64,000 bases of DNA from Chlamydiota bacterium (GTDB taxonomy: Bacteria; Auribacterota; JACPWU01). A program made the translations under genes and the position numbers. Where the stretch lies: contig JACOUC010000035.1 of assembly GCA_016178055.1 (NCBI GenBank), forward strand, positions 77,325 to 141,324, written 5' to 3'. The notes beneath the pieces were generated by a model, which saw nothing but the letters and a program-made list of their open reading frames with translations, ran no database searches and had not been told where the DNA came from. Shown piece by piece: positions 13,831 through 48,116 of this stretch; position 1 is the first letter of the stretch; each line of letters opens with the position of its first letter.

Positions 13831-13837
13831 GCGATTT

Positions 13838-21988: not shown

Positions 21989-23845
21989 CTACCGCCCCTC
22001 ACGTAGAGGCTGCATGGATTGTTCATTAACAGATGTCGCAACTTGACCAACCTCTTGCATAATCTTACGTAATGACTTATTGATCTCTTGCGATTTTTTC
22101 CTTTTGAACTTCATGATGTGGAGGCATCTGATCTGAAAAAATTCACTCAAACGGAGAATAAACACCTTTTTAGGAAGCCTTAGAAATTCTGATCTCAACA
22201 ACTGATACCAAATAATAAACGTTCTAAAACGGTATAAATAAACAAGGGCAGGATAGTACCAATAGCCTGTTGAAAAGTTAAAATAACCCCCTCTGGAATA
22301 GTCGTCCGATGACACCTTGTCTTGAACCTTCAGCTTTTTCCAATTCTGAAACTTGCTAGGCCAAAAAAACTTCAACATCAATGGATATAAGAAATCATTC
22401 ATAAATCCTTTTACACTCAAACGAACCATGTTGTTATATTTTAAATAATGAGCCATCACTTCAAAAACCAATCTGCGCCTCCAAGACTGGACAGTAAAAT
22501 AATCGGTGTCTGTAAAATTCAAGAATTTGGTATCATCACGGGCGTCGACATTAGAAATGAGCATCAAATATTTTTCTTCATCTTCAAGCGTTTTACCCAG
22601 GAATCCTTTCACCCTTGCGTTTTCATAAACAGGCGTTCCAGGCAAAGCTTGAATGTAATTACAACTGATCCTATTCTGAGGATACTCTGGTAAAAATTGT
22701 GTGACTGATTTCATAAAATCAGTGGTTTCAGAAATCGTCTGCGGAGTTTCACCCGGCATCGCCAAAACCAATTGATAAGTTGTATAAATTCCCGCCTCGA
22801 ATGTCCAGCGAGCCGCATGATAATTCATATCCACTGTTGCTCCCTTCTCCATCACTTTGAGAATGGTTGGGCTCCCCGTTTCCATCCCATAATATACCGC
22901 CACACACCCGCTTTTTTTCAACCTCTTAAGTAAATCCAAATCCACGGAACGAACTCTCACTCCTGAGACAATGTATAAAATATCTAGCGACTGAACCAAT
23001 TCTATCAATTCATCCAGCGCTCGTCTGTCTGATCCAAAATTCTCATCGGCAAAATTGATAAAACCCACATTGTATCGATCCATAAGATACTTAATTCTGG
23101 AGATAATTTTTCCAGGCGGAAAATGGCGATACCCCTTATCCCAACGGTGACAAAAGGTACATCGAGCAACACAACCTTTCGCAGAGAGGACATTGCCCAT
23201 TTTCTTCCCATGGCGATGACTCTCTCGGCTCCGAGGATCCCGCGCAAAATCCTCCCTCCTTGTAAGAGGGTCCTTCACAAAATTATCAATTTTTGAAAAC
23301 TTTTCTAGAATAGTATAGTCAGGATCAAATAACTGGTCGGCAGCAATCGCCGTCTCATAACCCGTAAAAATAAAATCTCCTTTCCTATCTAAAAAAGAGA
23401 TTCCTTTAATTTGCCGAAGTGTTAAATCATCAAATGATGTACCTCGATTCTCAATATATCGCATGAGATTCACAATGACTTTCTCGCCTTCCCCAATGAC
23501 ACAAAAATCTACTCCACATAATCGATGAAGGATTTCTGCACTTGCGGCAAGATTACCACCGACAACAATCGTTACGTTAGGAACAACTTTGCGCAAGGCC
23601 TTCGCAAGTCTTTTAGTATACTCATAGGCGGTTGAAACCACAGCGCTGATACCAACCACGTCGGGTTGCTGCTCTTCAAAAAATCTAACCACTTCATCAA
23701 ACGTTGGCCTTAACCCATCAATATCATAGAAATAGATATCATGATAACCATGGGATTGAAGAGATTGAATAATGGCCATCGAACCAAAAGGAGGATAATC
23801 CGTCGGAACAGGGCGAATGGGAGTTGTACAAATTGTGATTTTCAT
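21989..23845 (-). CDS. B12-binding radical SAM enzyme (class B).
   Basis: N-terminal B12-binding-like region followed by a CVARCTFC CxxxCxxC cluster. 618 aa. Confidence 0.8.
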   Translation of the reverse strand: MKITICTTPIRPVPTDYPPFGSMAIIQSLQSHGYHDIYFYDIDGLRPTFDEVVRFFEEQQPDVVGISAVVSTAYEYTKRLAKALRKVVPNVTIVVGGNLAASAEILHRLCGVDFCVIGEGEKVIVNLMRYIENRGTSFDDLTLRQIKGISFLDRKGDFIFTGYETAIAADQLFDPDYTILEKFSKIDNFVKDPLTRREDFARDPRSRESHRHGKKMGNVLSAKGCVARCTFCHRWDKGYRHFPPGKIISRIKYLMDRYNVGFINFADENFGSDRRALDELIELVQSLDILYIVSGVRVRSVDLDLLKRLKKSGCVAVYYGMETGSPTILKVMEKGATVDMNYHAARWTFEAGIYTTYQLVLAMPGETPQTISETTDFMKSVTQFLPEYPQNRISCNYIQALPGTPVYENARVKGFLGKTLEDEEKYLMLISNVDARDDTKFLNFTDTDYFTVQSWRRRLVFEVMAHYLKYNNMVRLSVKGFMNDFLYPLMLKFFWPSKFQNWKKLKVQDKVSSDDYSRGGYFNFSTGYWYYPALVYLYRFRTFIIWYQLLRSEFLRLPKKVFILRLSEFFQIRCLHIMKFKRKKSQEINKSLRKIMQEVGQVATSVNEQSMQPLREGR

Positions 23846-23846
23846 T

Positions 23847-25013: not shown

Positions 25014-25071
25014 TATTTAATTTATTGTCATTGTACATCATCAAAGGCAATCGCTCCACACTCACCTTAAA

Positions 25072-26112
25072 TCAATCCTCCATCTTAATCATGATACGCC
25101 CTGCATTTCCTTGTTCCAACTCTTTCAATGCTTGATTAATATCCTGAAGTCCATATTCATGCGTAATCATGCTCTTTAAGGGCAAATCTCCTGATAAAAA
25201 AAGGTTTGCGTAAAAAGGAATATCCTCATCTGTCTGGGCAGAGCCACCCCAAGAACCCAATATTTTTTTACCCTTAATTAAATCCATGGGATCAATCAAA
25301 ATCAAATCACCTTGAGATAAGTTACCCGCAATGACACAGATTCCTCCCTGGTCTCTTACAGATCGGAAAGCAGCCTCCATCGCCTGTTTTTTCCCCGAAG
25401 CTTCTATCGCATAATCCACACCCAATCCATTCGTCATATTGAGGATTTCAATTGCCACATCGCAAGACATTCCATTAATCGTGTGAGTTGCACCCAATTG
25501 TTTCGCTTGTTTTAATTTATGATCAAAAATATCGACCGCAATAATTTTATGAGCCTTAACAAAAGAAGCCGCCATCAAAGCACTCAAGCCCACTCCTCCA
25601 ATACCAAAAATAGCAACGCTCTCTCCCTCAGAAATCTTGGCCACTTTCAAAACGATTCCTGCACCCGTGGGAATCGCACAACCCAGAAGAGCAGCCTCTC
25701 GCAACGGCATAGAATCCAAAATAGGCGTAAGACGATTCTCGCAAGTAATGGTCCGCCTCATAAAGGTGCTAATTGCCCCAGAATTAACAGGACCTTCATC
25801 ACTCTGGTAAACCATCGAGGGGACATCCTTCCCTTTACCTTTAATCCAAGAAAGAACCACTCGATCGCCAGGTTTCACCTTCACAACATCGGAGCCCACT
25901 TCCAAAACTGTTCCAGAGCCCTCATGACCTAGGGTGTGAGGAAGAAAACGATCCGGTCCTCGTTTACCTAAAACTTCTAGAAGTTGACTGTGGCAAATAC
26001 TGCTATATGCAACATCCACAAGAACCTGTCCGGATTTAAGACTGGGTATCGTGACAGGAATAAGCTGCAGAGGTTTGCAAACTTCGAAAAGAACAGCTGC
26101 TTGGGTTTTCAT
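25072..26112 (-). CDS. Zinc-binding MDR-family alcohol dehydrogenase.
   Basis: CHSQL...GHEGSGTV zinc-ligand motif and a GxGxxG NAD region. Confidence 0.85.
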   Translation of the reverse strand: MKTQAAVLFEVCKPLQLIPVTIPSLKSGQVLVDVAYSSICHSQLLEVLGKRGPDRFLPHTLGHEGSGTVLEVGSDVVKVKPGDRVVLSWIKGKGKDVPSMVYQSDEGPVNSGAISTFMRRTITCENRLTPILDSMPLREAALLGCAIPTGAGIVLKVAKISEGESVAIFGIGGVGLSALMAASFVKAHKIIAVDIFDHKLKQAKQLGATHTINGMSCDVAIEILNMTNGLGVDYAIEASGKKQAMEAAFRSVRDQGGICVIAGNLSQGDLILIDPMDLIKGKKILGSWGGSAQTDEDIPFYANLFLSGDLPLKSMITHEYGLQDINQALKELEQGNAGRIMIKMED

Positions 26113-26190
26113 AAGAATGGGTGAGTGGTTACTGATATCTCTACTTATTATTCATACCCCTCACTCATAACCTCTCACCCCTCACCAAAT
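26113..26190 (-). promoter_or_regulatory. Conserved ~75-bp leader element immediately upstream of the ADH start codon (copy a).
   Basis: Shares GTGAGTGGTTA and CCCCTCAC(C) blocks with 40747..40807 and contains an inverted repeat. Confidence 0.4.
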
Positions 26191-26194
26191 AATA

Positions 26195-26863
26195 TTATTC
26201 CGCAATAAACCAATAATAATCGCCTGTATATCCGACTTCCTGAAAGAGTTTCTTCCAATCATTCACATGCATCATGGTTTCAGCGGTCAAAACCCATTTG
26301 TAAAGTTGTTCTTGCTCTTTTTCATTTCTCCAAGCATCCATGGTGATATAGCTGTGGCCACGGCTGACCCTCTGAATTTCTCTAAGGGCCTTCTTCAAAG
26401 GCTCAAGAGAAAGGTTGTGGATAGAATTGATAGAGATTACGAGATCAAAGCTTTTATCTGGAAAGGGTAAGCTTTCTGCACTCGCTACTTTAAGAAATGG
26501 TTTCACTGTAGGTATGGCGTGTTCAATGGCATATTCGCTCACGTCCACCCCTGCAACTTGGCATTCAGGCATGAGCTCTCTAAAATCATGCAACAAAAAT
26601 CCCTTTGCACATCCAATGTCTAAAACAGCAGCATTCTCTGGCAAACGATAATGATCGCGAAATCGTTTTGCGATATCTTTCCAACGCCCATCATATTTAT
26701 AGCCTCCATATCCCATCACACGAGGACCATCAAAAAACTCCCGACCAAATTGTTTAGCAATTCGGATAATTTCGGAAGTTTTCTCTTTGGCCCTTTGATC
26801 GTAATCACGAAGAGCTTTAGGGTGAGAATTTAAAAGATTAATTTCTGCCATCACGAAGGGCAA
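26195..26863 (-). CDS. Class I SAM-dependent methyltransferase.
   Basis: VLDIGCAKGF motif I. Confidence 0.8.
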   Translation of the reverse strand: MPFVMAEINLLNSHPKALRDYDQRAKEKTSEIIRIAKQFGREFFDGPRVMGYGGYKYDGRWKDIAKRFRDHYRLPENAAVLDIGCAKGFLLHDFRELMPECQVAGVDVSEYAIEHAIPTVKPFLKVASAESLPFPDKSFDLVISINSIHNLSLEPLKKALREIQRVSRGHSYITMDAWRNEKEQEQLYKWVLTAETMMHVNDWKKLFQEVGYTGDYYWFIAE

Positions 26864-26923
26864 TCCCTAATCCAAATAAACAATGCGCCATGGGTTCATA
26901 CCCGGTATGAACGACTTCATCAT

Positions 26924-27979
26924 TCATGACTTCTTCGCCTTTTCTACACCTTTGCTGAGCTCTTTTTCAAGCTCCTTAATCGCTGGAAAGCTTGATTTCA
27001 ATTTCTTCGGCAACGCATGCGTTAATTTATACTCTGATACCCCAATGGGTTTATGGATATCACTCATGGCATATTCTGCAACCAACTTATCCCGCCTCTT
27101 ACAAAGTAGAAGGCCGATTGTTGGGAGGTCCCCAACTTTACGCAACTGACTGTCCATCGCCTTGATATAAAAATTAAGTTTGCCAGCAAACTCCGGTTCG
27201 AAGTCCCCTGTTTTCAGTTCAACCACAACATAGCAATGCAAGCGAGTATGATAAAAAAGAAGATCTATAAAAAACTCTCGGTCCCCCACTTGAACAGGAA
27301 TTTGCCTGCCGATAAAAGCAAAACCGGCACCCAACTCCAGAAGAAAGCTCGTAAGATGATCTATGAGCTTATGTTCAAGCTCTCGCTCGCTAGAATCTGT
27401 AGACATGTTCAAAAAGTCAAAGATATAGGGATCCTTCAATGTTTGTTGAGCAAGATCGCCTTGGGGTTTAGGCAGCGTTAAATGAAAATTGCTAACGGCT
27501 TTCCCTTCCCGTTCAAAAAGACCGCTCTCTATCTGATGAACAAGAACGTTACGACTCCAATTATGCCTGATCGTGCCCTGCACGTAAAACATAGCTTCAC
27601 AGACGTCTTTGCATTTAGAGATAATGGCAATGTTATGTCCCCAGGGGATAGAGGTAATTTGGCCAACAACTTGTTGGCTAATTTGCTCTTCTTGGCTGTA
27701 AAATAAGTGCCACTGTTTGATATACTTTAAATTACTAAGTGAAAATCCTTTCATATCAGAAAATTCTGCCATCAAGTCCTTGCTGAGCCGAGGCAATAGA
27801 CCCTCTCCCCATTTTACGCTTTTTTGCCTGACAACAATATCCACGCCCATATCCCAATAAAGCTTTAACAGTTCAGTGTTTACACTGATCGCAGCTTTAA
27901 TCTGAGCACTGCGGACTCTCTTCTTAATATCCGAAAGCCAGGACTTGTATTCCTCGTCGCTCGTCAAATAATCTTTCAT
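26924..27979 (-). CDS. YhcG/DUF1016 family protein (PD-(D/E)XK nuclease-like C-terminus).
   Basis: FIDLLFYHTRLHCYVVVELKTGDFEPEFAGKLNFY matches the DUF1016 core. Flanked by ~50-bp direct repeats at 26871-26921 and 28033-28083. Confidence 0.8.
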   Translation of the reverse strand: MKDYLTSDEEYKSWLSDIKKRVRSAQIKAAISVNTELLKLYWDMGVDIVVRQKSVKWGEGLLPRLSKDLMAEFSDMKGFSLSNLKYIKQWHLFYSQEEQISQQVVGQITSIPWGHNIAIISKCKDVCEAMFYVQGTIRHNWSRNVLVHQIESGLFEREGKAVSNFHLTLPKPQGDLAQQTLKDPYIFDFLNMSTDSSERELEHKLIDHLTSFLLELGAGFAFIGRQIPVQVGDREFFIDLLFYHTRLHCYVVVELKTGDFEPEFAGKLNFYIKAMDSQLRKVGDLPTIGLLLCKRRDKLVAEYAMSDIHKPIGVSEYKLTHALPKKLKSSFPAIKELEKELSKGVEKAKKS

Positions 27980-28078
27980 ATTCTTAATGTCACAACCATC
28001 ATCGCTTTTTACGCATACAATCCAACACCGATGCCAAATAAATAATGGGCCATGGGATAATATCCTGTATGAACGACT

Positions 28079-28249
28079 TCATCGCCCATCATACCTATAG
28101 CCTCCGTATCCCATGATCCGAGGACCATCGAAAAATTCTGGTCCAAACTGTTTCGCAATTCGAATAATTTCTGGGGTCTTTTCCTTAACCCTTTGATCGT
28201 AATCCCGAAGGGTTTTAGGTTGGGAGTTTAAAAAATCAATTTCTGACAT
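28079..28249 (-). pseudogene. Remnant 5' fragment (56 codons) of the SAM methyltransferase gene, a duplicate of 26683..26863.
   Basis: Translation MSEIDFLNSQPKTLRDYDQRVKEKTPEIIRIAKQFGPEFFDGPRIMGYGGYRYDGR stops, whereas the intact gene reads MAEINLLNSHPKALRDYDQRAKEKTSEIIRIAKQFGREFFDGPRVMGYGGYKYDGRW. Confidence 0.6.
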
Positions 28250-28258
28250 TTGAAATTT

Positions 28259-30133
28259 CTATTTGACACGAGACGATTCCACAGAAAAATCTTTTAAGGA
28301 TATTTCCATGGGTTGAATCGTCATATTTTCAAGAAATTCTTTTCTTTCCAATAACGGATCTGCATCCTCATTGGGTCTCCCAAACTTCACTTGAGGAACG
28401 ACTCTTTCTTTGGAAGCAATTTCAACATTACAAAATACAGGACCTTTCGTCCTCAAAACCTCTTTAATACCATCTTCTAGTTGTTGAGTGCTAGAAAGGC
28501 AAACTGTCTTGTATCCATAAGCTTGTGCCACCTTTAAAAAATCAGGAAAAGCCAATCCTCCTTCAATAGAGGAGGCAAAATAATTTCCTTCTAACCATTG
28601 ATCCTGAGTTTGCTGAATCATGCTATAACCATGATTATTGATTAAAAAGATTTTAATGGGCAGTTGATAACGTAAAACGGTTGATAGCTCTTGGATATTC
28701 ATTTGCAAACTTCCATCTCCTGTCACACAAATTACAGATTTTTTTCCAAGCGCTAGAGAACCTCCTATGCTTGCTGGCAAAGCCCAACCCATCGCTGTAT
28801 TATTGCAATCATGATATAACCTTTGATCTGCTTTAAAATCAAATGCCTGCATCATCCAAGCTACAGCACAACCTGTATCTACAAACAAGGCGCTTCCTTT
28901 CTCGCAAGCTTGAGAAAGAGCTTTTACGAAAACATATGGATTAATTTCTTTTTGCCGATAATACTCGTCAGGACAAATAGGATACTTTTCTTTCCAGAAA
29001 GCAATTTGCTCTCTCCATGACGAGATATCACTTTTAGAGAAATTGACCATGTGCTGATTCAATTGTAATAAAAAATCCTTAGCATTTGCATGGATGAGTT
29101 GTTCTATTTTCAACCCAAACCTTTCAAATTTTTTTAATTCACTCAGATCAATATCGACAACTATTTTTTTGGCTGCCCTCGCAAAACTATAAGGAGGGCT
29201 TCCTGTGGCTTTTGTATCTAAACGCGTTCCTATCGCTAAAATTAAATCTGCATTTTGGACAGCAAAATTAGCGTATCGAGTCCCATGGGTTCCAAAGGTA
29301 CCGATTAAAAAAGGATAATCTGATTCAAAGAGATCTGCCATCGCCCATGTAGGAGCAACTGGGAAACCGAATTGCTCTACTAAATTTTTTGCTTCTTCCT
29401 CAGCTTTGGCCAAACGAACCCCCCATCCTAAAATAACCACAGGACGCTTGGCTTCTTTTAAAAGCTGCAGGCATTGATCGATATTAAAATTAGATTTTCT
29501 AGGAGCTTTTCCCTGATCCAAAACAAAAGGCTCAAGTAACGCTGGATTAATTTCCTCCCTTTGAATATTGTCGGGAATATCAATCACCACAGGTCCGGGT
29601 CGATCTGATTTTGCAATATGGCAGGCTTTTCCCAATTCATATCTTATTTTCATTGCATCGAGAATCTGTACAGCATATTTTGTGACGGATTTATAAATAC
29701 CAATCGTATCTGTTTCTTGAAAACCCATTTGTCGAACACCCGTATCTTTTTTCATTCTAAATGTCGAAACCTGACCTGTAATATAAATGACAGGTACAGA
29801 GTCATAATAGGCACAGCAAACTCCGGTCAGCATATTGGTAGCGCCAGGGCCACTTGTTGAAATGGCCGCTCCTAAATTCCCCGTAAGGCGAGAATACCCA
29901 TCAGCCGCCATGGCTCCTGCCTGTTCATGCTGAGGACAAATAAATTCAATACCTTCGGTTTCTGCAAGAGCATGAATGAGATGAAGGGAGGCGCCACCAG
30001 AAACAGCAAAAACATGGCGAATGCCCTGTTGGGCTAAAAATCTTGCGACATAATCAGAGAGCTTCATGCCAAGGCATCTCCAATTTAGATGTGATAAAAA
30101 GTGTTCCCTCACGATAACTGGTTGGCATGTCAT
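28259..30133 (-). CDS. Thiamine-diphosphate enzyme of the acetolactate-synthase/YerE family.
   Basis: N-terminal MKLSDYVARFLAQQGIRHVFAVSGGASL...GPGATN and a C-terminal ThDP-binding GDGS region. The probable start is the internal MKLSDY Met, at about 30067. Confidence 0.85.
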   Translation of the reverse strand: MTCQPVIVREHFLSHLNWRCLGMKLSDYVARFLAQQGIRHVFAVSGGASLHLIHALAETEGIEFICPQHEQAGAMAADGYSRLTGNLGAAISTSGPGATNMLTGVCCAYYDSVPVIYITGQVSTFRMKKDTGVRQMGFQETDTIGIYKSVTKYAVQILDAMKIRYELGKACHIAKSDRPGPVVIDIPDNIQREEINPALLEPFVLDQGKAPRKSNFNIDQCLQLLKEAKRPVVILGWGVRLAKAEEEAKNLVEQFGFPVAPTWAMADLFESDYPFLIGTFGTHGTRYANFAVQNADLILAIGTRLDTKATGSPPYSFARAAKKIVVDIDLSELKKFERFGLKIEQLIHANAKDFLLQLNQHMVNFSKSDISSWREQIAFWKEKYPICPDEYYRQKEINPYVFVKALSQACEKGSALFVDTGCAVAWMMQAFDFKADQRLYHDCNNTAMGWALPASIGGSLALGKKSVICVTGDGSLQMNIQELSTVLRYQLPIKIFLINNHGYSMIQQTQDQWLEGNYFASSIEGGLAFPDFLKVAQAYGYKTVCLSSTQQLEDGIKEVLRTKGPVFCNVEIASKERVVPQVKFGRPNEDADPLLERKEFLENMTIQPMEISLKDFSVESSRVK

Positions 30134-30950
30134 CTACATGGCTCACCCGTTTCCAACCCGTTTTTTGAGAAAAAAGACGAACACCCGTTTTTTGGAAATG
30201 TTCATAAATAGCCGTTGCATTGTTTGGATTACCCACTTCAATGAGACCATCTGTATTTGCCCAATGATCCCGATGGGTCCCCAACAGAACTTCTTTCTCG
30301 TGTCCTTCAATGTCTAATTTAACTAAATCAGCCCAGGAAAGAAGGGCATTCATGGCTTCAACCTTCACAGGAAATCTTTCAAGCTCGCCATAAGGATGAG
30401 CTTTCGCACCCGCCAGATGACTCCCGGTTGTATTTCCTAACACCCTCACAAATTCCATCTCTCCCGCTTGAGTCGAAACAGCTGTATTAAAGGCGTGAAT
30501 ATTCGAACAATGATTAAAGTCTAAATTTCTTTTAAAAATTTCAAAATGCTTGGGATCCGGTTCATAGGCATGCACTTCAAATCCACATTTGCTTAAGATG
30601 ATGGAATGAAGTCCAATATTGGCCCCAATATCAAGAACCCGTCGATAAGAACGACGATGCATCCAATAAAAACTAAAAATAATCAACTCATCCAGATCAA
30701 ACAAATTGAGAGAATCAACCGCGCCCATGTTATGGTAAGGAAAGGTTAAACTTCCAAAAGGTTTAAAATCTACAGGAACTCCATCATTATTTAGAAAAAG
30801 ATTTTCTATTTCACGACGCGCAATCTTCTTGAAAAAAGAATACAACGATGAGCCGGGTGCATGAAGAGCGCTCAAAGAAGGCAATGTTAACAAGAGTTCT
30901 TCAAGAACGAAAGTCGAAGAGACATTGACCGCCTGTAGACTAGGAGCCAT
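30054..30950 (-). CDS. FkbM family methyltransferase.
   Basis: VLDIGANIGLHSI...YEPDP. Confidence 0.8.
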   Translation of the reverse strand: MAPSLQAVNVSSTFVLEELLLTLPSLSALHAPGSSLYSFFKKIARREIENLFLNNDGVPVDFKPFGSLTFPYHNMGAVDSLNLFDLDELIIFSFYWMHRRSYRRVLDIGANIGLHSIILSKCGFEVHAYEPDPKHFEIFKRNLDFNHCSNIHAFNTAVSTQAGEMEFVRVLGNTTGSHLAGAKAHPYGELERFPVKVEAMNALLSWADLVKLDIEGHEKEVLLGTHRDHWANTDGLIEVGNPNNATAIYEHFQKTGVRLFSQKTGWKRVSHVDDMPTSYREGTLFITSKLEMPWHEAL

Positions 30951-31890: not shown

Positions 31891-32626
31891 GGAATGTAAC
31901 TAAACCCGCTACGTCGTCCCCTTGACCTATTCTACCCAAGGGAATTCTGGCCGCACCCTGAGCATCTATCTTGATTCTAGCATTGATGAGAGAAATTTCT
32001 TCCTCGTAAGCAACCTGTTTGGCTAATTGATCTCTTCCATCAGAATGCACCTGCCCCACACAAATAACATTGACCAAAACACCGTCACTTCCTAACAAAT
32101 TAGCCAAGTGCTTACTCAAATTAATCACCGCTGCCTTGCTTGCACAATAATGAGGGATTAAAAGACCAGGTTCTACCCCTGAAATGGACGCTATATTAAT
32201 AATACGTCCCACTTTTGATTTTTTGAGCCACGGCAAGGCCTGCTGTACAAAGTGAACCACTGTCATCACATTCAGATCAAATGCGGATATCCAATCATCA
32301 CGGTTTAAGTCATAAAATTTTGTTATTTTATTTACCCCACCAACGTTATTAACAAGAATATCTAGCCTGCCGAATCTCTGAATCGCATCCCCAACAACTC
32401 GCTGCACAGATTGAGGATCCGTAGCATCAGCAGCCACAGCAAAAGCTTTTCCTGGAAGTCTTTCAAATTCTTGCACAGTCGCCTCGAGCACGACAGGATC
32501 ACGAGCTGTCAAAACAACATCTGCACCTTCCTGAGCAAGGGACTGAGCAATAGCTTTACCAATGCCTTTGCTGCTTCCCGTGATAAGAGCCACTCGACCC
32601 GTCAAAGTTAAGTGAGTGTTTTCCAT
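31814..32626 (-). CDS. SDR family oxidoreductase.
   Basis: VALITGSSKGIGKAIA, NNVGG and YCASKAAV. Confidence 0.85.
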   Translation of the reverse strand: MENTHLTLTGRVALITGSSKGIGKAIAQSLAQEGADVVLTARDPVVLEATVQEFERLPGKAFAVAADATDPQSVQRVVGDAIQRFGRLDILVNNVGGVNKITKFYDLNRDDWISAFDLNVMTVVHFVQQALPWLKKSKVGRIINIASISGVEPGLLIPHYCASKAAVINLSKHLANLLGSDGVLVNVICVGQVHSDGRDQLAKQVAYEEEISLINARIKIDAQGAARIPLGRIGQGDDVAGLVTFLASDKSAWITGSCFHVNGGKHRSAF

Positions 32627-32684
32627 CCACCTTCCTTAAGTGTTGAACTGTCACAAATTGAAGCCCACGAAAGCTGAAAGGGCA

Positions 32685-34748
32685 TCAACCCAAGGGGAAA
32701 GACCCAAGGCTTGCCACAATATCTTCCGCAGCTGGAACAACTTCTCGAAACAATCGTTTGATAGGTGATACTCGCATCAAAATTCGACTCATTCCATCTA
32801 ACGATGTGCCGTACTGTTTAACATATCCTTCTATCAAAGTCTTTTGCTTATCCGTGTGCGCAAAGAGAAAGTTGCAAGGTTTATCCAGTAAATAAAGAGA
32901 GGGATCCACATTGTAGTTTTGTTCCCCAATGGCTGAAAAATCAAAATGAAGAAGACGATTAAACCGTCTTTCTGCATTAGTCAAATCTACTTTTCTAAGC
33001 AAGCCATATTCTTTCAATTCTTCCAAATACAGTTCTTTAATCTCATCCAGACGCTCAGACTCTTTGAGCATCGTTTTCATGATCGCAAACAATGCGTTAT
33101 GCAAATCAACCTGCAAATTTAAAAATGCTACGGCCTTACCATTGGACATTTCATTGGTACTACTTTCACTGCTGAAAAAGGCATCCATGTTTTCACGCAC
33201 ATAAGCTGCTAGATCTTCTCGCCTATCCCAGAGGCGGCTGATTGTCTCGGCACGAAACGAATCATACAAATGAATCAACCCCTCAGTGAAAGACCGCCGC
33301 GTGTTGTGAAAACGCATGATGAAATCAAACCAGGGAAAGCCTGCCCATTTACATAACCCCCATAACTCGGCAAAAGTCCTCCCATTGTGCACAATTTCTA
33401 CCGTGAGATCTAATTCTCGACATTCAATATACTCTTCAAAACTCAAACTATGAGTCTGAATACAAATTTCTTCAGATTCAACAGAGCTGAAAATTTCATC
33501 TTGAAAATCATATTTACCAAAAGACCGCGGCATGATGCGATATTTCGTCTTCATCGCATATTGGTTTCGAGTTTTGGGAGTGTTAAGTTCAGTTTGAGGA
33601 AGCATAATAAGCTGATACATTCTCAAAACTCCTAGATTGGCTTCTACCACATCGCGTAGAGAGTGCATGTGTTTTTCCATCGTATCCCCTGGCAAACCTA
33701 AAATAATTTCAGAATAAGTGTCCGCACTCGTTTTATTAGCCTGCTGAGCCATGGTACTTAGGGCATCCAGAGAAATATTAGATCGCTGAATATTGCTGAG
33801 CACCGTTTGATCCGTAGATTGTAACGATGCAGCAATATTCAGCGCACCATTGAGCATAGATGCAACTTCGATCACGTGTTCCTTCCGGTTCTTTCCAGTT
33901 GAGACAACCACTCGCTGTGGCCAACCATATTTATCCTGGATAGAGGCAATGATGCCTGCCTTTGCTTTGTCCTCTTTATACATTCCAAAATTAGCATCTG
34001 TAAGGTATAAATCAGGGACACTCCCAACACGCTGCGCAATGTACTCTAGCTCATCCTTTAAATCAATTCTTTGTGCAACTTTAGAATAATAGGATGACCC
34101 TTCAGAACAAAACGTACAAGTAAAGGGGCAACCCCGTGTTGTGTGAACCATGGGTGATAAAACTTGATCGAAAAACTTATCCATCAACCCCATCAAGTAT
34201 GGAGAGGACAATTCCCCCAAATCTTTGATTCTGGGAAGCATTTCTCCAATCATCATCTTGCCATTAGACCAATAATGACAGTTGGGAAGTAGCCTCTGAT
34301 CCCGTTTTAAGGCGAGTACATCATAATTTACCTCGTGCAATGCTTTAACCAGCTCAATCATTGCCAATTCACCTTCCTTGACAACATAAAAGTCAAGAAG
34401 CGGAAACCGATTCCAAAATGCCAGCATTTCTTCTTCTGTCAGACCATAATTAGGACCTCCAAACACAATCACGGTATCTGGAAAACTTTTCTTTATGCGG
34501 CTTGCATATTGATAAGACAAGTCACAGTTCCACGAGTAGTTTGTAAAACCAGCGATTCGAGGCATACGCCGCCGAAGAGAACGAGACAAATCTTGAGGAT
34601 ATTTAAAAACTTCCACCTCGACAATCTCAGGCAGGCTTCTTAGCAATTGCGCCCCAATCAAACCACCCGCCAAGGGATGTACATTGGATGAAATAACCGA
34701 TCCAGTATGCGTAAGATCTGATAAATAGATTAGAGTCTTTGCAATCAT
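32685..34748 (-). CDS. B12-binding radical SAM enzyme (class B), second copy.
   Basis: TTRGCPFTCTFC CxxxCxxC motif after an N-terminal B12-binding-like domain. 687 aa. Confidence 0.8.
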   Translation of the reverse strand: MIAKTLIYLSDLTHTGSVISSNVHPLAGGLIGAQLLRSLPEIVEVEVFKYPQDLSRSLRRRMPRIAGFTNYSWNCDLSYQYASRIKKSFPDTVIVFGGPNYGLTEEEMLAFWNRFPLLDFYVVKEGELAMIELVKALHEVNYDVLALKRDQRLLPNCHYWSNGKMMIGEMLPRIKDLGELSSPYLMGLMDKFFDQVLSPMVHTTRGCPFTCTFCSEGSSYYSKVAQRIDLKDELEYIAQRVGSVPDLYLTDANFGMYKEDKAKAGIIASIQDKYGWPQRVVVSTGKNRKEHVIEVASMLNGALNIAASLQSTDQTVLSNIQRSNISLDALSTMAQQANKTSADTYSEIILGLPGDTMEKHMHSLRDVVEANLGVLRMYQLIMLPQTELNTPKTRNQYAMKTKYRIMPRSFGKYDFQDEIFSSVESEEICIQTHSLSFEEYIECRELDLTVEIVHNGRTFAELWGLCKWAGFPWFDFIMRFHNTRRSFTEGLIHLYDSFRAETISRLWDRREDLAAYVRENMDAFFSSESSTNEMSNGKAVAFLNLQVDLHNALFAIMKTMLKESERLDEIKELYLEELKEYGLLRKVDLTNAERRFNRLLHFDFSAIGEQNYNVDPSLYLLDKPCNFLFAHTDKQKTLIEGYVKQYGTSLDGMSRILMRVSPIKRLFREVVPAAEDIVASLGSFPLG

Positions 34749-34760
34749 AAGAATTTCTCC

Positions 34761-35603
34761 TTAAATTGGGACCGAGCTCTCATCATGTCTCTTCTGAAAA
34801 TGAAGCATCAAACTAAATTGTTCCTGCACAGACATTCCACCATCCATCACAATACATTGACCAGAAATATAGGATGCGTTGGGTGAACAAAGAAACAGCG
34901 CCGCATGAGCAACATCATCAGAACGCCCTGGCTGTCCCATCGGATGGCAAAATTCAACCAGTTCTCGATAACCTTGATTGTCATCTTGCCTATAACGATC
35001 AAGATCTTCATCCCGAATAATAACGCCAGGCAATAATGCATTAACTCGAACACCTTCTGCACCTCCTCGAACAGCAAAATAGCGAGTCATCTGAGTCAAT
35101 CCCACTTTCGCAATTTGATAGACAGGAGAAACTTCACGTGCAGAAAGCAGTCCTGTGATTGAACTGATGTTAACAATGCTTCCCCCGCCATTTTTTGCCA
35201 TTGTAGAAATAGCTGCCTGAGACGCAAAGAACGCAGCCCGAAGATTAACAGCCATTTCGAGATCCCAACTTTCTTCATCATCCGATTTGTCCCGAGAACG
35301 GACAGCCCTTGCATTATTCACCAAAACATCAATCTTTCCATAACTCCTGACAATCTGACGAATCATCTCTTGTGGTGTCCCCTTCTCACTTAAATCAACT
35401 TTCAAAAACGTAGAAGAGAGCTTTCGATCACGTAAATCTGTTACGGTTGTATGTCCCTCTTTATCATTGAGATCGCAGACAATAACCATCGCGCCTTTTT
35501 GAGCAAATGCATTAACAATGTTTTTACCAATACCTCGTGCGCCTCCTGTAACAGCAACTATTTTCCCTTCAAAAAGAGATAGAGAATCAGGCGTGATGGA
35601 CAT
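34761..35603 (-). CDS. SDR family oxidoreductase.
   Basis: VAVTGGARGIGKNI, NNAR and YQIAKVGL. Confidence 0.85.
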   Translation of the reverse strand: MSITPDSLSLFEGKIVAVTGGARGIGKNIVNAFAQKGAMVIVCDLNDKEGHTTVTDLRDRKLSSTFLKVDLSEKGTPQEMIRQIVRSYGKIDVLVNNARAVRSRDKSDDEESWDLEMAVNLRAAFFASQAAISTMAKNGGGSIVNISSITGLLSAREVSPVYQIAKVGLTQMTRYFAVRGGAEGVRVNALLPGVIIRDEDLDRYRQDDNQGYRELVEFCHPMGQPGRSDDVAHAALFLCSPNASYISGQCIVMDGGMSVQEQFSLMLHFQKRHDESSVPI

Positions 35604-35811
35604 ATTCCAAGGGCTCCTTTACAATTTGATCCCAATATTTTTCTATCCAGGCAACAACACCTCCAACACCTTCATTCAAAGAGATTTTATTTGACCATCC
35701 TAATGTCTTTCTCGCCTTCGTCGAATCAATCACATAAGCTTGATCTTGTCCCAAGCGCTCCGGTGCAACAACCGTAACATCCTCAAAAGATTTTCCTAAA
35801 ACAAATGTCAC
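35587..35811 (-). pseudogene. Orphan C-terminal fragment of an NDP-sugar 4,6-dehydratase/epimerase.
   Basis: ...VAPERLGQDQAYVIDSTKARKTLGWSNKISLNEGV... is a dehydratase C-terminus. A second copy of the same 3' end is found at 38272..38424. Confidence 0.55.
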
Positions 35812-36620
35812 GCAACCATTCGTGGGGGCTTATTTCCAGGAACAAGAAGCCTATTATTTTTTTTTAAAACCTTCAATTCATCAATGATAGGCGCCCAATA
35901 GATACGATCCCTTCTTCGTGATTCTTCTATTTCCAATGCCATTTCTTGAGAAGCCTCTTTAAGATGTACCGCTTTTCTATGATCCTGTAGCAATGCTTGT
36001 AAACACAGAGATAAGCATTTTCTAGAAAGATGTGCACCTATTGTTTTAGCTGTTTCATCCGACTGAAGGTAATCAAGTATATCCTCAACCTCAAAACTAT
36101 TTTTTAATATCCATTTCCAGTCATTCATTTTCAATTTTCTTTCAGAAAGATTCCTGGATTCGATTCGAACAAGATTTGAAATGATCGGGTAGTCTTCCAA
36201 ACGTCTCGTTTTTTTTATTTCCACCAAATCTCTTATTGCAACTACAGGAATTTTGCCCCAATCTGTCATTGGGTATTTTACACGCTTGAAAGAATCATCA
36301 TAATCCCCAACCCGAGGGGCTACTCCCATAACATCCAAAAACCAAAAAGGAATATTTTTGTCTTCATCTGGAATCTGAAAATGAAAACCATGCCCTTGAG
36401 AGATCCATTTCATTGAAATGGGCGGCGTTAATTTGTATATCACTGCACCCACACTTCCAAGCACCTTTAGAAATCTGTTCCAGTTCTCTTTCACTGGTTG
36501 AACCCACAGATCAATATCTTCTGAAAAGGTGGCGGCTCCATAAATCACAGAAGCCTGCCCGCTAATCAACATATAAGAAACGCCTGAAATATTAAGGTCT
36601 TGGAAAAATCTTTTTATCAT
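35808..36620 (-). CDS. Nucleotidyltransferase-like hypothetical protein (paralog family A/B/C, with 47300..48082 and 53349..53939).
   Basis: ISGQASVIYGAATFSEDIDLWV resembles a minimal NTase G[GS]...D.D motif. IPVVAIRDLVEIKKTRRLEDYPI is shared with 47300..48082. Confidence 0.5.
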   Translation of the reverse strand: MIKRFFQDLNISGVSYMLISGQASVIYGAATFSEDIDLWVQPVKENWNRFLKVLGSVGAVIYKLTPPISMKWISQGHGFHFQIPDEDKNIPFWFLDVMGVAPRVGDYDDSFKRVKYPMTDWGKIPVVAIRDLVEIKKTRRLEDYPIISNLVRIESRNLSERKLKMNDWKWILKNSFEVEDILDYLQSDETAKTIGAHLSRKCLSLCLQALLQDHRKAVHLKEASQEMALEIEESRRRDRIYWAPIIDELKVLKKNNRLLVPGNKPPRMVA

Positions 36621-36894
36621 GGATTTCCTCTATGTTTTTGAGTCTTAGGCGAAGCGCACAAGAACGGCGAAGCCTTCCTCGAGCCGTCATTTTCTGCCAA
36701 GCAGTTCTCTGAAATGTCCCAATAAGCGATTCATTAAGGTATATCATTTTTCTCATGTTTTGAATTACTCGTCCCTGCTTTAATTTACGAGACAGTGTTT
36801 CGTGAATTGAAGCAATTCTGGATAACACCCAAAGGTTTAAGACGACTCTTATCCACCGCCACTCCTTTTCGGCTTCTTATCCCGTCAAGACCGA

Positions 36895-37077
36895 TCAAAG
36901 TGCTTCATGAATGATGGGGTCCATTGACTTACTAAGTTTCGCCAGCATCCAAAGGTCTTTAGAAGTGGCGACCGAATTAACGCGAATGTTTCCAAATTCC
37001 AATGTTTCGGACAGCAGTTGGGTTCTTAAGAAGAAAATATATTTGGCACGGTCATAGGGCTGTTTAAAATCCATCAA
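36895..37077 (-). CDS. Small hypothetical ORF with an ATGA overlap to the YhcG stop.
   Basis: 60-aa ORF only. Weak. Confidence 0.25.
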   Translation of the reverse strand: MMDFKQPYDRAKYIFFLRTQLLSETLEFGNIRVNSVATSKDLWMLAKLSKSMDPIIHEAL

Positions 37078-38108
37078 TTTTTCATCTCCTCTAGAAGCTG
37101 GCTTTTCAGTTCTTTTTCAGGAGGTAAAATTTTCTTAAGATCTGATGGAATTTTATTTGTTAAATGATATTGAGACACACCCATAGGGTTCTTAACACTT
37201 CGAAGGGCATATTCTACAACGATATTTTTCTTCTCGGCGCAAAGGATAATACCAATGGAAGGATTTTCATCTTTGAAACGCACTTTATCATTCAATAAAT
37301 GAAGATAAAAATCCATTTTCCCTGCATATTCAGGCTGAAATTTTCCTGTTTTCAGCTCAATGGCAACAAGGCATTTGAGCTTTCGGTTAAAGAAAAGCAA
37401 ATCTATGAAATATTCTTCCCCGTCTATCTCAAGCCGGTATTGATTACCGATAAATGAAAACCCGGCACCAAGCTCAAGAATAAAATGTTTCATTTTTTCA
37501 ATAAGCCGTTTTTCAAGCTCCCGCTCCACAAAAGGTCTGGTTATCCCAAGAAAATCAAGGTTGTAGACGCTTTTAAGTGATTCATCGGCCTGTTCTGCCA
37601 AATATGCTGGTAAAACTTTCTCGTAATTGTGTTGTTTTTTCTTCAAGTGGAGTCGATAGGCATCAGCTTTGATTTGATTCAAAAGAACATTTCTTGACCA
37701 TCCTAATTTGGATGATTCGTTAATATAATATTCCCGTTCTTTGAGATCCTTAATTTTCTGCATAATAAGAATATTATGACCCCATGGAATTTCTGGCACA
37801 AGCTGTGCCAGTTTTACATCATCCTTGTATTCAAGATAAAACATTCGCATCCGCCATAGATTATCCGGTGAAAAGCCTTCCAAACTTGGATACTCACGGT
37901 TAAGGTCATGGGATAATTGTTCAACAACCCTTTGCCCCCATTTATATTTTTCCTGGCGCTCAACAATGCTCTTGCCAATATCCCAGTATAGTTTAATAAG
38001 ATCTTTATTAATCGAGCGTGCGGAACCAATGCGGGCAGAAACAATGCGTGATTTGATTTCATGCAGGAATTGACCATAGGCTTTTGAAGTGATCTCGCCA
38101 GATTTCAT
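37074..38108 (-). CDS. YhcG/DUF1016 family protein, second copy.
   Basis: FIDLLFFNRKLKCLVAIELKTGKFQPEYAGKMDFY. About 45% identical to 26924..27979. Confidence 0.8.
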   Translation of the reverse strand: MKSGEITSKAYGQFLHEIKSRIVSARIGSARSINKDLIKLYWDIGKSIVERQEKYKWGQRVVEQLSHDLNREYPSLEGFSPDNLWRMRMFYLEYKDDVKLAQLVPEIPWGHNILIMQKIKDLKEREYYINESSKLGWSRNVLLNQIKADAYRLHLKKKQHNYEKVLPAYLAEQADESLKSVYNLDFLGITRPFVERELEKRLIEKMKHFILELGAGFSFIGNQYRLEIDGEEYFIDLLFFNRKLKCLVAIELKTGKFQPEYAGKMDFYLHLLNDKVRFKDENPSIGIILCAEKKNIVVEYALRSVKNPMGVSQYHLTNKIPSDLKKILPPEKELKSQLLEEMKN

Positions 38109-38271
38109 TCAAATACTCCTTGATTTCCCATAAATGCGAAGGTACATTCGTCCTTCACCCCCAGATGTTTCGTCCAGCTAATTTCTTCAACCAGTGGTTG
38201 GAGATTTGCGTTTTTTTGACATGCATCATCTCCTGCTTCAGACACATCACTCATAATCAGATTTTTGAAAT

Positions 38272-38940
38272 TAGGGCTTGTGAACATAATCCAAAGGCTC
38301 CTTCGTAACTTGATCCCAAAATTGATCAATCCAATTCACAACCCCTTTAAGACCTTCTTCGAGAGAAATTCTTGAAGACCACCCTAAAGTTTTCCTCACT
38401 TTTGTCGAATCAATCACATAAGCTTTATCTTGTCCCAAAGGCAGCGTAGGGAGTCGAGGGATTCATGGGAGAAGTCTCTGTCACATTCCCCTCACAGGTT
38501 CCATAAACCTCGGGAGAAGAAATATGTACATATCGCTTCAAATATTTCTTATCTTTGAGATGATGAATTAATTGCGCCAAGGCCACGGTATTGGTCTGAA
38601 ACCAATGATGAGGATTTTCCCAACTTGGAGCCACTTCGCTTTGCGCTGCAAAATTAACGATGTATTCTGGCTGAAACTGATCCAAAGTTTCTAAAATACG
38701 CGACATGTCTTTATTAAAATCCAATTGATGAAATTTAAAATTCCCATTTACAGAGTGGCGTTTATAGGGCAAAAAAAGCTCCGTCTTTTCTGGAGAACGG
38801 CTCGCCCCCATCACTTCGAAACGCCCTTCCTCTAAAAGCAAATCTATAAAATCACTTCCAGAGAAAGAATTGCTTCCAAGGACTGCAACCTTTTGTCTTC
38901 TGTGTTCTGTCTTCTGTATTCTGTCTTCTGTATTCTGCAT
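38272..38940 (-). pseudogene. NDP-sugar 4,6-dehydratase gene with a large internal deletion and frameshift.
   Basis: The N-terminal 171 codons (VLGSNSFSGSDFIDLL...PYAA) stop at 38425. The C-terminal ~45 codons (LGQDKAYVIDSTKVRKTLGW...) continue in another frame, and about 130 central residues are absent. Confidence 0.6.
38893..38940. repeat. Imperfect 7-bp (CTGTNTT) / 14-bp tandem repeat, ~3 x 14 bp, at the 5' end of the dehydratase pseudogene.
   Basis: ttgtcttctgtgtt ctgtcttctgtatt ctgtcttctgtatt ctgcat read directly from the sequence. Confidence 0.6.
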
Positions 38941-38942
38941 TT

Positions 38943-39839
38943 TTAAAAAGGCCCTCGAAACGCAGGATCTGGAACATCCAAATGAATCGCCGAGAACGGA
39001 ATCTCCTCTTCAAGATGATCTCTTTGAAACATTTCACGTGTTGCTGCAACCATCTCAGTGGCTCGGGGATAAAATCGTTTTGCGAGAGTGGGCGTCGTAG
39101 GAGTGGGGACATCTGGAAGGGCAACGCGTTTTGGAGCACATTTGAGTTCGTTCATGGCTTTTTCAGCAACCAAGGCAATAATCTCTGCAGAAGCTCCAAA
39201 AGATTTCCAGCTCGTATCTGCAACAATTAATCGTCCTGTTTTCCGCACTATATTGTGCAGCCATCGATGCTCAATAAAAATGACAGGATTATTGTCCTCA
39301 ATGCTTGAAATCAAAAGGCCCTTTGCATCATAAGGAGTGACCGGCATGACCACTTTCAAACCTGGCACATGTGCAAACCAAGACTGAAGGCTTTGTGAAT
39401 GCTGAGGCCCTTGCCCCCAACCTCGACCTATAATTAAGCGAACTACCAAGGGAACATGGGCTTCGCCTCCAAACATGTAATGCCATTTAGCGGCCTGATT
39501 CACCATTGGCTCCATGGCAAGCATGGCAAAATCAATTCGCTGATGCGTTAGAATCGGTCTCATCCCCACAAGGGCTGAACCGATCGCAACGCCCGTCATC
39601 CCATTTTCTGAAACGGGCATATCCATCACACGCCCATTTCCAAACTTTTCTTGTAGGCCTGAAGTCGTCCCAAAAATACCTTTCGGATCCGGCACTCCCA
39701 ATCCCATGATATAAACGCTCGGATTGCTCTCCATGCAAAGCGTGGTCGCTTCGCGAATGGCTTCAAAAAATTTAAGTTCTCTAGGCATAGACATTCTCAT
39801 AAAGCGCTGATTCTTCTGGAAAAGGACTTTGTTTAGCAA
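38943..39839 (-). CDS. Pyruvate/2-oxoacid dehydrogenase E1 component, beta subunit (transketolase-like).
   Basis: Pyrimidine-binding domain (PVSENGMTGVAIGSALVGMRPI). The probable start is at MSMPREL. Confidence 0.85.
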   Translation of the reverse strand: MLNKVLFQKNQRFMRMSMPRELKFFEAIREATTLCMESNPSVYIMGLGVPDPKGIFGTTSGLQEKFGNGRVMDMPVSENGMTGVAIGSALVGMRPILTHQRIDFAMLAMEPMVNQAAKWHYMFGGEAHVPLVVRLIIGRGWGQGPQHSQSLQSWFAHVPGLKVVMPVTPYDAKGLLISSIEDNNPVIFIEHRWLHNIVRKTGRLIVADTSWKSFGASAEIIALVAEKAMNELKCAPKRVALPDVPTPTTPTLAKRFYPRATEMVAATREMFQRDHLEEEIPFSAIHLDVPDPAFRGPF

Positions 39840-40746
39840 ATTGAACCGATCCTTCTACCTCATCATCAATCAATTTTGCCATTTGATTTAATTCTTCTTC
39901 CGTAATACTGTTTTCGTTTAGTAATTTTTTTCGGAAATTTTCAAGAGGACATTTCTTTTTCCAAATTTCAAATTCTTCAGGCGTTCGATAACCCAAGTCA
40001 TTGTCAAAATTTGGACCGCAATGCTCGCGCCAGCGGTAGGTCGTAAACTCAAGAAAAGAGGGGCCTTTGCCTTCACGTGCCTTCTGAATGGCTTTTTGGG
40101 CAAGCGTAAAAACCGCCACGACATCATTGCCATCCGCTTTATGGCTTTCAATGCCGTACCCGCACACCAGTTCAAAAACTTCACGATTTTCGGGCTGGCG
40201 AACTTCCAGAGGCGAATAGACAGAATATAAATTATTTTCACAAATAAAAATCACCGGCAGTTTTTTCAAAACAGCAAAATTAATACTCTCATGAAACACA
40301 CCTTCTTCAGTCGCCGCCTCTCCAAAGAAAACCGTGGTCACACGAGATTCTTTTTTCATTTGAGTCCCCAAGGCGGCTCCAACCCCAATAGGAATCGTAC
40401 TTCCCACAATGGGCGTAGACCCCAGAAAACCAACTGAAAGATCAATCAAATGCATGGACCCGCCCTTACCTTTTGAGCAGCCCGTCCCCTTTCCATAAAG
40501 CTCCGCCATCATTTTTCTAAGATCCCCACCCTTAGCTAAATAATGGCCGTGAGCACGATGACCGCTCATCGCATAATCTCCCTGGGTCAACGCCTGACAA
40601 ACACCGACAGCAACGGCTTCCTGACCAATACAAAGATGTATCGGACAACGCATTTCCTGTTCTGGATAAAGCTCCGCAATCTTTTCCTCGATTTTGCGAA
40701 TGCGGAGCATTTGGTAGTATAGTTTTTTTAGAATTTGGACTTCCAT
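39781..40746 (-). CDS. Pyruvate/2-oxoacid dehydrogenase E1 component, alpha subunit (ThDP-binding).
   Basis: IHLCIGQEAVAVGV and GKGGSMHL motifs. Confidence 0.85.
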   Translation of the reverse strand: MEVQILKKLYYQMLRIRKIEEKIAELYPEQEMRCPIHLCIGQEAVAVGVCQALTQGDYAMSGHRAHGHYLAKGGDLRKMMAELYGKGTGCSKGKGGSMHLIDLSVGFLGSTPIVGSTIPIGVGAALGTQMKKESRVTTVFFGEAATEEGVFHESINFAVLKKLPVIFICENNLYSVYSPLEVRQPENREVFELVCGYGIESHKADGNDVVAVFTLAQKAIQKAREGKGPSFLEFTTYRWREHCGPNFDNDLGYRTPEEFEIWKKKCPLENFRKKLLNENSITEEELNQMAKLIDDEVEGSVQFAKQSPFPEESALYENVYA

Positions 40747-48110: not shown

Positions 48111-48116
48111 ATCTTT

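Follow-up and report, generated by a model that had tools for sequence, protein, structure and literature searches.

A widespread surface-glycan cassette combining an acetolactate-synthase-like carboligase with an E1 alpha/beta pair, predicted to make a C-branched, methylated sugar

A 64,000-nucleotide stretch of DNA from a Chlamydiota bacterium (contig JACOUC010000035.1, positions 77,325 to 141,324; hereafter the window) contains, at about 25,072-45,575 and in a separate gene for a SIS isomerase at 54,212-54,865, what is probably one copy of a widespread sugar-tailoring cassette for a C-branched, methylated sugar. The cassette includes two systems dependent on thiamine diphosphate (ThDP), a carboligase resembling acetolactate synthase (ALS) and an E1 alpha/beta pair of the pyruvate dehydrogenase (PDH) type. 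ThDP enzymes are known to branch sugars in two settings: those of the YerE type act on a handful of lipopolysaccharide (LPS) sugars, and E1 alpha/beta pairs on sugars of actinomycete antibiotics. An earlier note on this DNA had proposed that a YerE-like ThDP enzyme, a free-standing E1 pair and two cobalamin-binding radical S-adenosylmethionine (SAM) enzymes, here called rSAM1 and rSAM2, form a joint machinery for branched or C-methylated sugars. The genes it named were all located correctly, on the minus strand, and Pfam confirmed their domains. The idea of a joint machinery held for the ThDP carboligase and the E1 pair, which share the cassette, but not for rSAM1, which lies outside it, or for rSAM2, which is a rare accessory.

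Domain identities, conserved synteny, a natural gene fusion and lesions, all observed directly, form the basis of this reading. When one genome per species was scanned with family-specific peptide patterns, about 534 species-representative genomes of bacteria and archaea proved to encode a relative of the ThDP carboligase. Identity within the family is 50-73% across Nitrospirota, Elusimicrobia, candidate phyla radiation (CPR) bacteria, Planctomycetes, Omnitrophota, Chloroflexota, cyanobacteria, Leptospira and archaea. All window proteins were compared by tblastn with the 57 retrieved ThDP loci that were 15 kb or longer, which came from many phyla. A short-chain dehydrogenase/reductase (SDR) homologous to the product of 30940-31890 was found near the ThDP gene in 51 of the 57 loci, nearly always just upstream of the FkbM-ThDP gene pair, and a Methyltransf_11 protein (MT11) was equally frequent (51/57). 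Next came E1 alpha (47 loci, median identity 56%), intact E1 beta (46), the SDR Epim329 (44, median identity 45%), an HldE-like kinase/nucleotidyltransferase (41), a Zn-dependent alcohol dehydrogenase (ZnADH; 40, median identity 53%), an intact orthologue of an RmlB-like dehydratase (38) and the FkbM methyltransferase (36). At least seven of nine partner genes were present in 40 loci, and a GmhA-like SIS gene adjoined the cassette in 21. Wherever both E1 genes occurred they were on the ThDP strand (46/46 cases; median gap 2.8 kb).

Gene order is conserved as well. In the closest loci (L009, L029 and L046) it is Epim343-HldE-like-SIS-Epim329-E1 alpha-E1 beta-dehydratase-like-SDR-FkbM-ThDP-MT11-ZnADH, and the window shows this same order after removal of its own insertions. 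A culturable carrier, Phormidium sp. FACHB-1136 (L084), has the arrangement MT11-E1 alpha-E1 beta-SDR-FkbM-ThDP-ZnADH-HldE-like-SIS. Independent gene calls with Pfam labels gave the same gene set in Elusimicrobia, Nomurabacteria and Leptospira. Furthermore, the metagenomic proteins P0027 and P0092 are natural fusions of the ThDP enzyme (N-terminal) with MT11 (C-terminal), which argues that the two enzymes share an intermediate as substrate; in P0027 the halves match their window counterparts at 66% and 61% identity. The proposal of the earlier note would have fallen if the E1 pair and the ThDP enzyme had their conserved orthologues in central-metabolism loci of relatives; we found them instead in glycan loci of very distant phyla. 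Among plasmids, tblastn with the ThDP enzyme retrieved only ordinary acetohydroxyacid synthase (AHAS), at about 34% identity, and no cultured plasmid-borne cassette.

In the window, all cassette genes are on the minus strand. The first gene in the closest relatives is Epim343 (44544..45575), an SDR epimerase/dehydratase (Pfam Epimerase, 7e-49) with 68-73% identical homologues at the same position in L009, L029 and L046. The HldE-like bifunctional protein (42258..43841) has an N-terminal nucleotidyltransferase and a C-terminal PfkB kinase domain (Pfam CTP_transf_like and PfkB); it scores under the NCBIfam cut-offs for HldE, rfaE_dom_I and rfaE_dom_II alike, and is predicted to activate the sugar. 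Then follow the core gene Epim329 (40808..41797), encoding an SDR epimerase/reductase (Pfam Epimerase, 4e-37), and the genes for E1 alpha, the ThDP-binding subunit (39781..40746; Pfam E1_dh, 1e-71), and E1 beta (38943..39839, likely start 39788), which matches Transket_pyr and part of Transketolase_C and carries an internal deletion. The SDR resembling dTDP-glucose-4,6-dehydratase (RmlB-like) is represented by a pseudogene at 38274..38940 (open reading frame (ORF) 38425-38940), detected by tblastn with the intact L009 orthologue, and by an orphan second 3' fragment at 35596..35802 (tblastn, 62% identity over 69 amino acids). An accessory sub-cassette (31814..35603) consists of an SDR (34761-35603), rSAM2 (32685-34748) and another SDR (31814-32626). 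It is followed by an SDR reductase in the position of YerF (30940..31890, likely gene 30940-31788; Pfam adh_short), the FkbM-family methyltransferase (30054..30950; TIGR01444, 92 bits against a cut-off of 37.7), the ALS-like three-domain ThDP carboligase that anchors the cassette (28259..30133; Pfam TPP_enzyme_N/M/C), the class I SAM methyltransferase MT11 (26195..26863) and, as last core gene, the medium-chain ZnADH (25072..26112; Pfam ADH_zinc_N and ADH_N). PDB searches with the Methyltransf_11 and FkbM proteins returned nothing informative. The GmhA-like SIS isomerase (54212..54865; Pfam SIS_2; TIGR00441 gmhA, 81 bits against a cut-off of 209) is displaced in the window to about 9 kb upstream of the cassette, and likely performs the entry step from a sugar phosphate.

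The ThDP carboligase scores under every AHAS equivalog cut-off (TIGR00118, 436 bits against 538). A Pfam scan of the window ORFs of at least 150 amino acids and several shorter ones detected no AHAS small subunit of the ACT type. Its best PDB matches were 8rph (322 bits) and 5ahk (320 bits), plant AHAS scoring about 300; 5ahk is taken here to be PpYerE. The entry 8rph is JanthE, a YerE-like enzyme (PMC12188165). In an alignment, a 6-residue insertion (GQVSTFRMKKDTGVRQMGFQE) before the GFQE motif was common to the ThDP family, PpYerE and JanthE and absent from IlvB, IlvI, plant AHAS and Gcl. A neighbour-joining tree rooted on glyoxylate carboligase, from which YpYerE and ErwE were absent, grouped the family with JanthE and PpYerE, outside a clade of AHAS sequences (bootstrap 82). 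The catalytic glutamate (HEQ) and the GDG...NN cofactor motif (GDGS...NN) are conserved in the family, and the signature HDWNNTAM stands where AHAS has GGLGxMG. We therefore treat the enzyme as a separate subfamily related to YerE-like enzymes rather than as a proven member of that group. Its real start is probably 30067, since it is 100% identical to a database protein of 602 amino acids (P0001) that begins 22 codons downstream of the ORF start; the 624-residue ORF product had no exact match in the public protein index.

The branches of certain LPS sugars are introduced by YerE-like enzymes; where the branch is long, HpcH-type aldolases feed them (PMC9306805). We considered long keto-acid donors made by aldolases, as in erwiniose and caryophyllose, and rejected them for the core, no HpcH aldolase being found in any of the 57 loci; a simple donor such as pyruvate is more likely for the same reason. 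A CMP-activated ulosonic acid was likewise rejected as the end product of the core, CTP_transf_3 being present in 10 and NeuB in 2 of these loci.

The E1 proteins form a pair of the ordinary heterotetramer type, with PDH E1 as nearest structures. E1 alpha scores 333 bits with TIGR03182, under the PDH cut-off of 394, and E1 beta is barely over the cut-off of PRK09212 (325.6 against 321). We considered the possibility that E1 alpha is inactive, from its GEA...ENN cofactor motif, and rejected it because the family alternates between the forms of G[DE][GA]...ENN. The Pfam scan mentioned above found neither E2 (lipoyl, 2-oxoacid_dh) nor E3. The free-standing arrangement put forward in the earlier note is thus supported: E1 alpha/beta pairs that lack E2 and E3 are of the documented alpha-KADH2 type. 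Members of this type attach two-carbon branches to keto-sugars, at position C3 or C4; aldgamycin, kibdelomycin, paulomycin and avilamycin are among the products (PMC12247030).

Both radical-SAM enzymes have an N-terminal B12-binding domain and a radical-SAM core with the CxxxCxxC motif, and both had been taken for C-methyltransferases, a view that fits rSAM2 better than rSAM1. TokK and CysS are sequential methylases of sp3 carbons, and the class B cobalamin radical SAM enzymes also include non-methylases. rSAM2 (Radical_SAM 1e-8, B12-binding 4e-7; cluster motif CPFTCTFC) matched TokK (8e-43) and CysS (2e-28) over the B12 domain and the radical-SAM core, and aligned partially to the KedN5-family hidden Markov model (HMM; 149 bits against a cut-off of 700). 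Between phyla, members of the rSAM2 family have 50-66% identity, and its homologues are found with the two flanking SDRs inside the ThDP/E1 cassettes of Leptospira (L091) and Nitrospina (L092). Several family members are on contigs of the same length as contigs that encode a ThDP family member. With a homologue within 10 kb in only 5 of the 57 ThDP loci, rSAM2 and its two SDRs are an optional accessory sub-cassette.

In contrast, rSAM1 (21989-23845, minus strand; B12-binding 5e-20, Radical_SAM 1e-19; cluster motif CVARCTFC) has no close characterised methylase relative. Its matches to characterised enzymes were weak (TsrM, 2e-8, in the PDB, and partial matches to BchE, HpnJ and PhpK), there was no 100% match in the public protein index, and its assignment as a methylase is a guess. 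It adjoins NeuB (21027-21965) and a CMP-transferase (20277-21020); in Nitrospira (L094) its homologue likewise neighbours NeuB, CTP_transf_3 and a LIC12162-type transferase, and in Elusimicrobia (L093) it lies in an unrelated glycan locus. rSAM1 belongs to the neighbouring module of the nonulosonic-acid type (NeuB/CMP-transferase) and is outside the branching machinery. The Nitrospina locus L092, which contains a ThDP gene, encodes three distinct radical-SAM proteins of the B12 type, one of the SPASM type, a PhyH dioxygenase and an MBOAT protein; radical chemistry on surface glycans may be commoner than appreciated.

The branched-sugar reading is supported by context, and the substrates, the order of the steps and the branching chemistry are deduced from gene content. 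The starting compound would be a sugar phosphate, probably a heptose derived from sedoheptulose 7-phosphate by the GmhA-like isomerase; we infer this link to heptose from the presence of GmhA-like and HldE-like genes, though all of these score below their cut-offs. The HldE-like protein would phosphorylate the sugar phosphate and activate it with a nucleotide, and the RmlB-like SDR (the L009 orthologue scores 192 bits with TIGR01181, against a cut-off of 365) would oxidise or dehydrate the product to a keto-sugar. The E1 pair and the YerE-related enzyme, which belong to different ThDP superfamilies, might each move an acyl-anion unit, likeliest hydroxyethyl from pyruvate, onto a carbonyl carbon. 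The SDR beside the ThDP gene and ZnADH would then reduce the new ketones, and the FkbM and Methyltransf_11 enzymes would methylate the sugar. In some lineages, including that of the window, the SDR/rSAM2/SDR sub-cassette would probably add at least one C-methyl group to an unactivated carbon of the same sugar. We tentatively suggest, as a possibility on which we would not insist, a product derived from heptose to which ThDP enzymes have added C2 units twice in succession (the alpha-KADH2 pair first, then the YerE-related enzyme), for instance as a branched C4 side chain, further methylated in some lineages by a TokK-like enzyme and displayed on the surfaces of hundreds of lineages, among them CPR bacteria, archaea, marine cyanobacteria and Leptospira.

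Several observations weigh against the branched-sugar reading. The ThDP enzyme is about 33% identical to YerE-like enzymes, which is no higher than its identity to AHAS, so that similarity alone leaves the choice between the two undecided, and the placement of the family with YerE-like enzymes has incomplete support in the neighbour-joining tree. YerE is accompanied by the DdhA-D genes, which make its acceptor, CDP-4-keto-3,6-dideoxyglucose. These genes are absent here, and the conserved core contains no DegT-type or Ddh-type genes. The YerE-like label of the earlier note agrees with the low AHAS scores and the missing small subunit; it is based on one indel, the loop insertion, and on the neighbour-joining topology. 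In addition, 11 of the 57 loci have no E1 pair within 10 kb, the need for two ThDP enzymes is unexplained, and the dehydratase-like SDR may not be a 4,6-dehydratase, because SPE replaces the TDE motif of RmlB.

The copy in the window also bears two lesions in core genes that count against the same reading. Its E1 beta gene is without 210 nucleotides (70 codons, in frame) that are present in contigs L001 (positions 9789-9998) and L002 (1589-1798), which otherwise show zero mismatches to the window over 9.8 and 2.2 kb, respectively. The deletion point is at window 39250/39249; the lost codons encode the linker and the first half of Transketolase_C, leaving a match to profile positions 55-121. 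Only 4 nucleotides of microhomology (TCAG) occur at the junction, and the gap resembles a true deletion allele more than a shortcut made during k-mer assembly. Separately, three independent contigs end within about 1 kb of this deletion. The RmlB-like dehydratase gene is a truncated pseudogene: it keeps about 167 codons of the N-terminal part (to 38440), after which the last 55 or so (38438-38274) continue in another frame. Look-ups in the public protein index found neither the deleted E1 beta nor the truncated dehydratase protein. The cassette copy in the window thus seems damaged and decaying and, with two core genes defective, the pathway may not operate in this genome.

We considered the possibility that the ThDP enzymes extend the sugar chain rather than branch it. 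ZnADH or an SDR would oxidise the terminal CH2OH to an aldehyde and the ThDP enzymes would add C2 units there, giving a linear higher-carbon sugar (a nonose or undecose-like acyloin) that has no tertiary-alcohol branch. Most ThDP carboligases prefer aldehyde acceptors (PMC12247030), ZnADH is a core gene (in the 40 loci noted above), the dehydratase-like SDR is devoid of the canonical TDE motif, and stepwise elongation would rationalise two successive ThDP steps more easily. Yet YerE, ErwE and alpha-KADH2, the only characterised relatives that turned up in clusters for glycans or sugars, attack ring ketones (PMC9306805, PMC12247030), and the shared loop insertion links the ThDP enzyme to the ketone-accepting YerE-like group. 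On balance we regard chain extension as rather improbable. Slightly less probable still is a separate substituent: the ThDP enzymes would build an acyloin or a group derived from a branched keto acid (acetolactate- or acetoin-like), to be reduced, methylated and then joined to the glycan by an ester, ether or ketal linkage. This would agree with the ALS-like fold, with an E1 class that also contains the acetoin-cleaving Ao:DCPIP oxidoreductase (PMC12247030), with the matches, below cut-off, of several SDRs to HMMs of the butanediol/acetoin-reductase type, and with the fusion of a methyltransferase to the ThDP enzyme. However, the conserved core contains no acyltransferase, CoA ligase or carrier protein, and the rest of it consists of nucleotide-sugar enzymes (kinase/nucleotidyltransferase, RmlB-like SDR, epimerases).

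If the two ThDP systems were ordinary central-metabolism AHAS and PDH E1 genes that happen to sit in a polysaccharide locus, their synteny with glycan genes should not be kept across phyla. It is kept; the ThDP enzyme and E1 alpha both score under the equivalog cut-offs, no IlvN/H, E2 or E3 was present among the scanned window ORFs, and the ThDP family has HDWNNTAM rather than GGLGxMG. The best HMM names, acetolactate synthase and PDH E1, and the score of E1 beta just over its cut-off are what such a coincidence has in its favour, and we regard it as effectively refuted. The reading that we retain is a cassette for a C-branched, methylated sugar.

This cassette resembles known systems in its parts. 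Like YerE/YerF (yersiniose A), ErwE, MMAR_2332, MygE, PpYerE and JanthE, it encodes an ALS-like ThDP enzyme of three domains among surface-glycan genes, beside an NAD(P)H reductase and methyltransferases. Unlike those systems, it has HldE-like activation and an RmlB-like SDR instead of DdhA-D, no aldolase in its core, and a second ThDP system, the E1 pair, in 46 of the loci. Its E1 genes are free-standing and clustered with nucleotide-sugar genes, as are the alpha-KADH2 pairs (AlmDI/DII of aldgamycin, KbDH-alpha/beta of kibdelomycin, the avilamycin/paulomycin type), the likeness being one of arrangement. In contrast with these pairs from actinomycete secondary metabolism, the present one occurs in cell-surface polysaccharide loci of many phyla, is joined with a YerE-related enzyme and, in the window, has an internally deleted beta subunit. 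The known counterparts of rSAM2 are the TokK/ThnK/CysS/KedN5 methylases, from which it differs by sitting in a glycan cassette instead of a carbapenem or polyketide cluster. The SIS isomerase, the PfkB kinase with nucleotidyltransferase and the SDR epimerase/dehydratase-like genes recall the pathways of ADP-heptose (GmhA, HldE, HldD) and 6-deoxyheptose (DmhA/DmhB); the differences are that all these proteins score below equivalog cut-offs, that the HldE-like protein has its two domains in reverse order, and that the core has no GmhB phosphatase.

Each enzyme type is thus known singly, YerE-like enzymes in LPS, and alpha-KADH2 pairs and TokK-like methylases in antibiotics. Their occurrence together, as a conserved cell-surface glycan cassette that is entered by an HldE-like route and spread very widely among phyla, appears to be undescribed. 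In the literature we found no description of a glycan cassette with both ALS-like and E1 enzymes, though a survey mining biosynthetic gene clusters (ref. 70 in PMC12247030) may overlap with it. If the reading is true, the cassette would make a common yet chemically undescribed surface sugar, provide new ketone- or aldehyde-accepting carboligases for biocatalysis, and be a rare case of a cobalamin radical-SAM methylase in the biosynthesis of a polysaccharide rather than an antibiotic.

The two insertions in the window copy each bring a gene for a DUF1016/YhcG nuclease of the PD-(D/E)XK type, on the minus strand, and the two genes are diverged from each other. The first (37074-38108; Pfam YhcG_C, 2e-61) is part of an insert at 35808..38108 that also holds, on the same strand, an ORF of 270 amino acids with no Pfam match (35808-36620). 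This insert has no counterpart at the corresponding place in syntenic loci, and its sequence is confirmed by the independent contig L003. It is flanked by the two 3' fragments of the dehydratase gene, 35596-35802 being 77% nucleotide-identical to 38275-38438, and has the appearance of a scar left by recombination or insertion. The second nuclease gene (26924..27979; YhcG_C, 3e-63) splits the ThDP gene from its usual neighbour MT11 and is absent from this place in syntenic loci. The decayed copy illustrates the turnover of O-antigen-like loci through the insertion of selfish genes. Further selfish or defence-type genes are dotted through the operon, at 41799-42179, 43778-44481, 54862-55789, about 48100-49000 and 50891-53296; the set comprises a retropepsin-like ORF, a SNF2-family helicase and three toxin-antitoxin pairs, namely HEPN with a Pol-beta nucleotidyltransferase (MNT), HepT with MNT, and PIN with PhD/YefM, the last placed between Wzm and Wzt by the gene calls on L001. 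Epim343 has, near 45530, a 15-nucleotide in-frame indel (GTCGAACGTCTGCTT, encoding VERLL in the GxxGxxG helix) that is absent from L001 near position 3520. A 141-nucleotide segment at 6680-6819, inside the 3' part of an ORF for a 712-residue transferase (6278-8416), is 95% identical to the 5' part of Epim343 (about 45390-45530) and may be a gene-fragment remnant or a fusion.

A single minus-strand series of genes spans the whole window, bar a few small antisense ORFs, with a roughly even G+C content of about 38-47%. Parts of it are matched at 100% identity by contig L001 (GCA_016196915.1) and by two Logan contigs, L002 and L003. Judged by Pfam and NCBIfam scans that took in essentially every ORF, the window is a giant surface-polysaccharide operon of the ABC-transporter (Wzm/Wzt) type, with Wzm at 50005-50859 and Wzt at 45582-46940, both on the minus strand. 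An UpxY/RfaH-type NusG-like antiterminator is encoded at 57829-58461 on the same strand (UpxY family, 144 bits against a cut-off of 100); its position upstream of a long one-strand glycan operon is like that in Bacteroides capsule loci. The operon also contains three KdsB/NeuA-type CMP-transferases, one NeuB, two HpcH/HpaI aldolases, many SDRs and large LIC12162/LIC13510-type transferases. The four methyltransferases announced in the earlier note correspond to four SAM methyltransferases, at 2026-2919, 12955-13830, 26195-26863 and 30054-30950, all on the minus strand.

A second unusual sugar module is present at 2886-14632, again on the minus strand. It includes an AroB-related cyclizing sugar-phosphate phospholyase (9305-10387; TIGR04425, 482 bits against a cut-off of 400), a GFO/IDH/MocA oxidoreductase, an SDR, a 2-hydroxyacid dehydrogenase, an FAA-hydrolase-family protein, two HpcH/HpaI aldolases (2886-3725 and 13838-14632) and two KdsB-type CMP-transferases above the subfamily cut-off (3649-4473 and 12130-12912). 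This gene content suggests the synthesis of a non-canonical ulosonic acid or a carbocyclic sugar.

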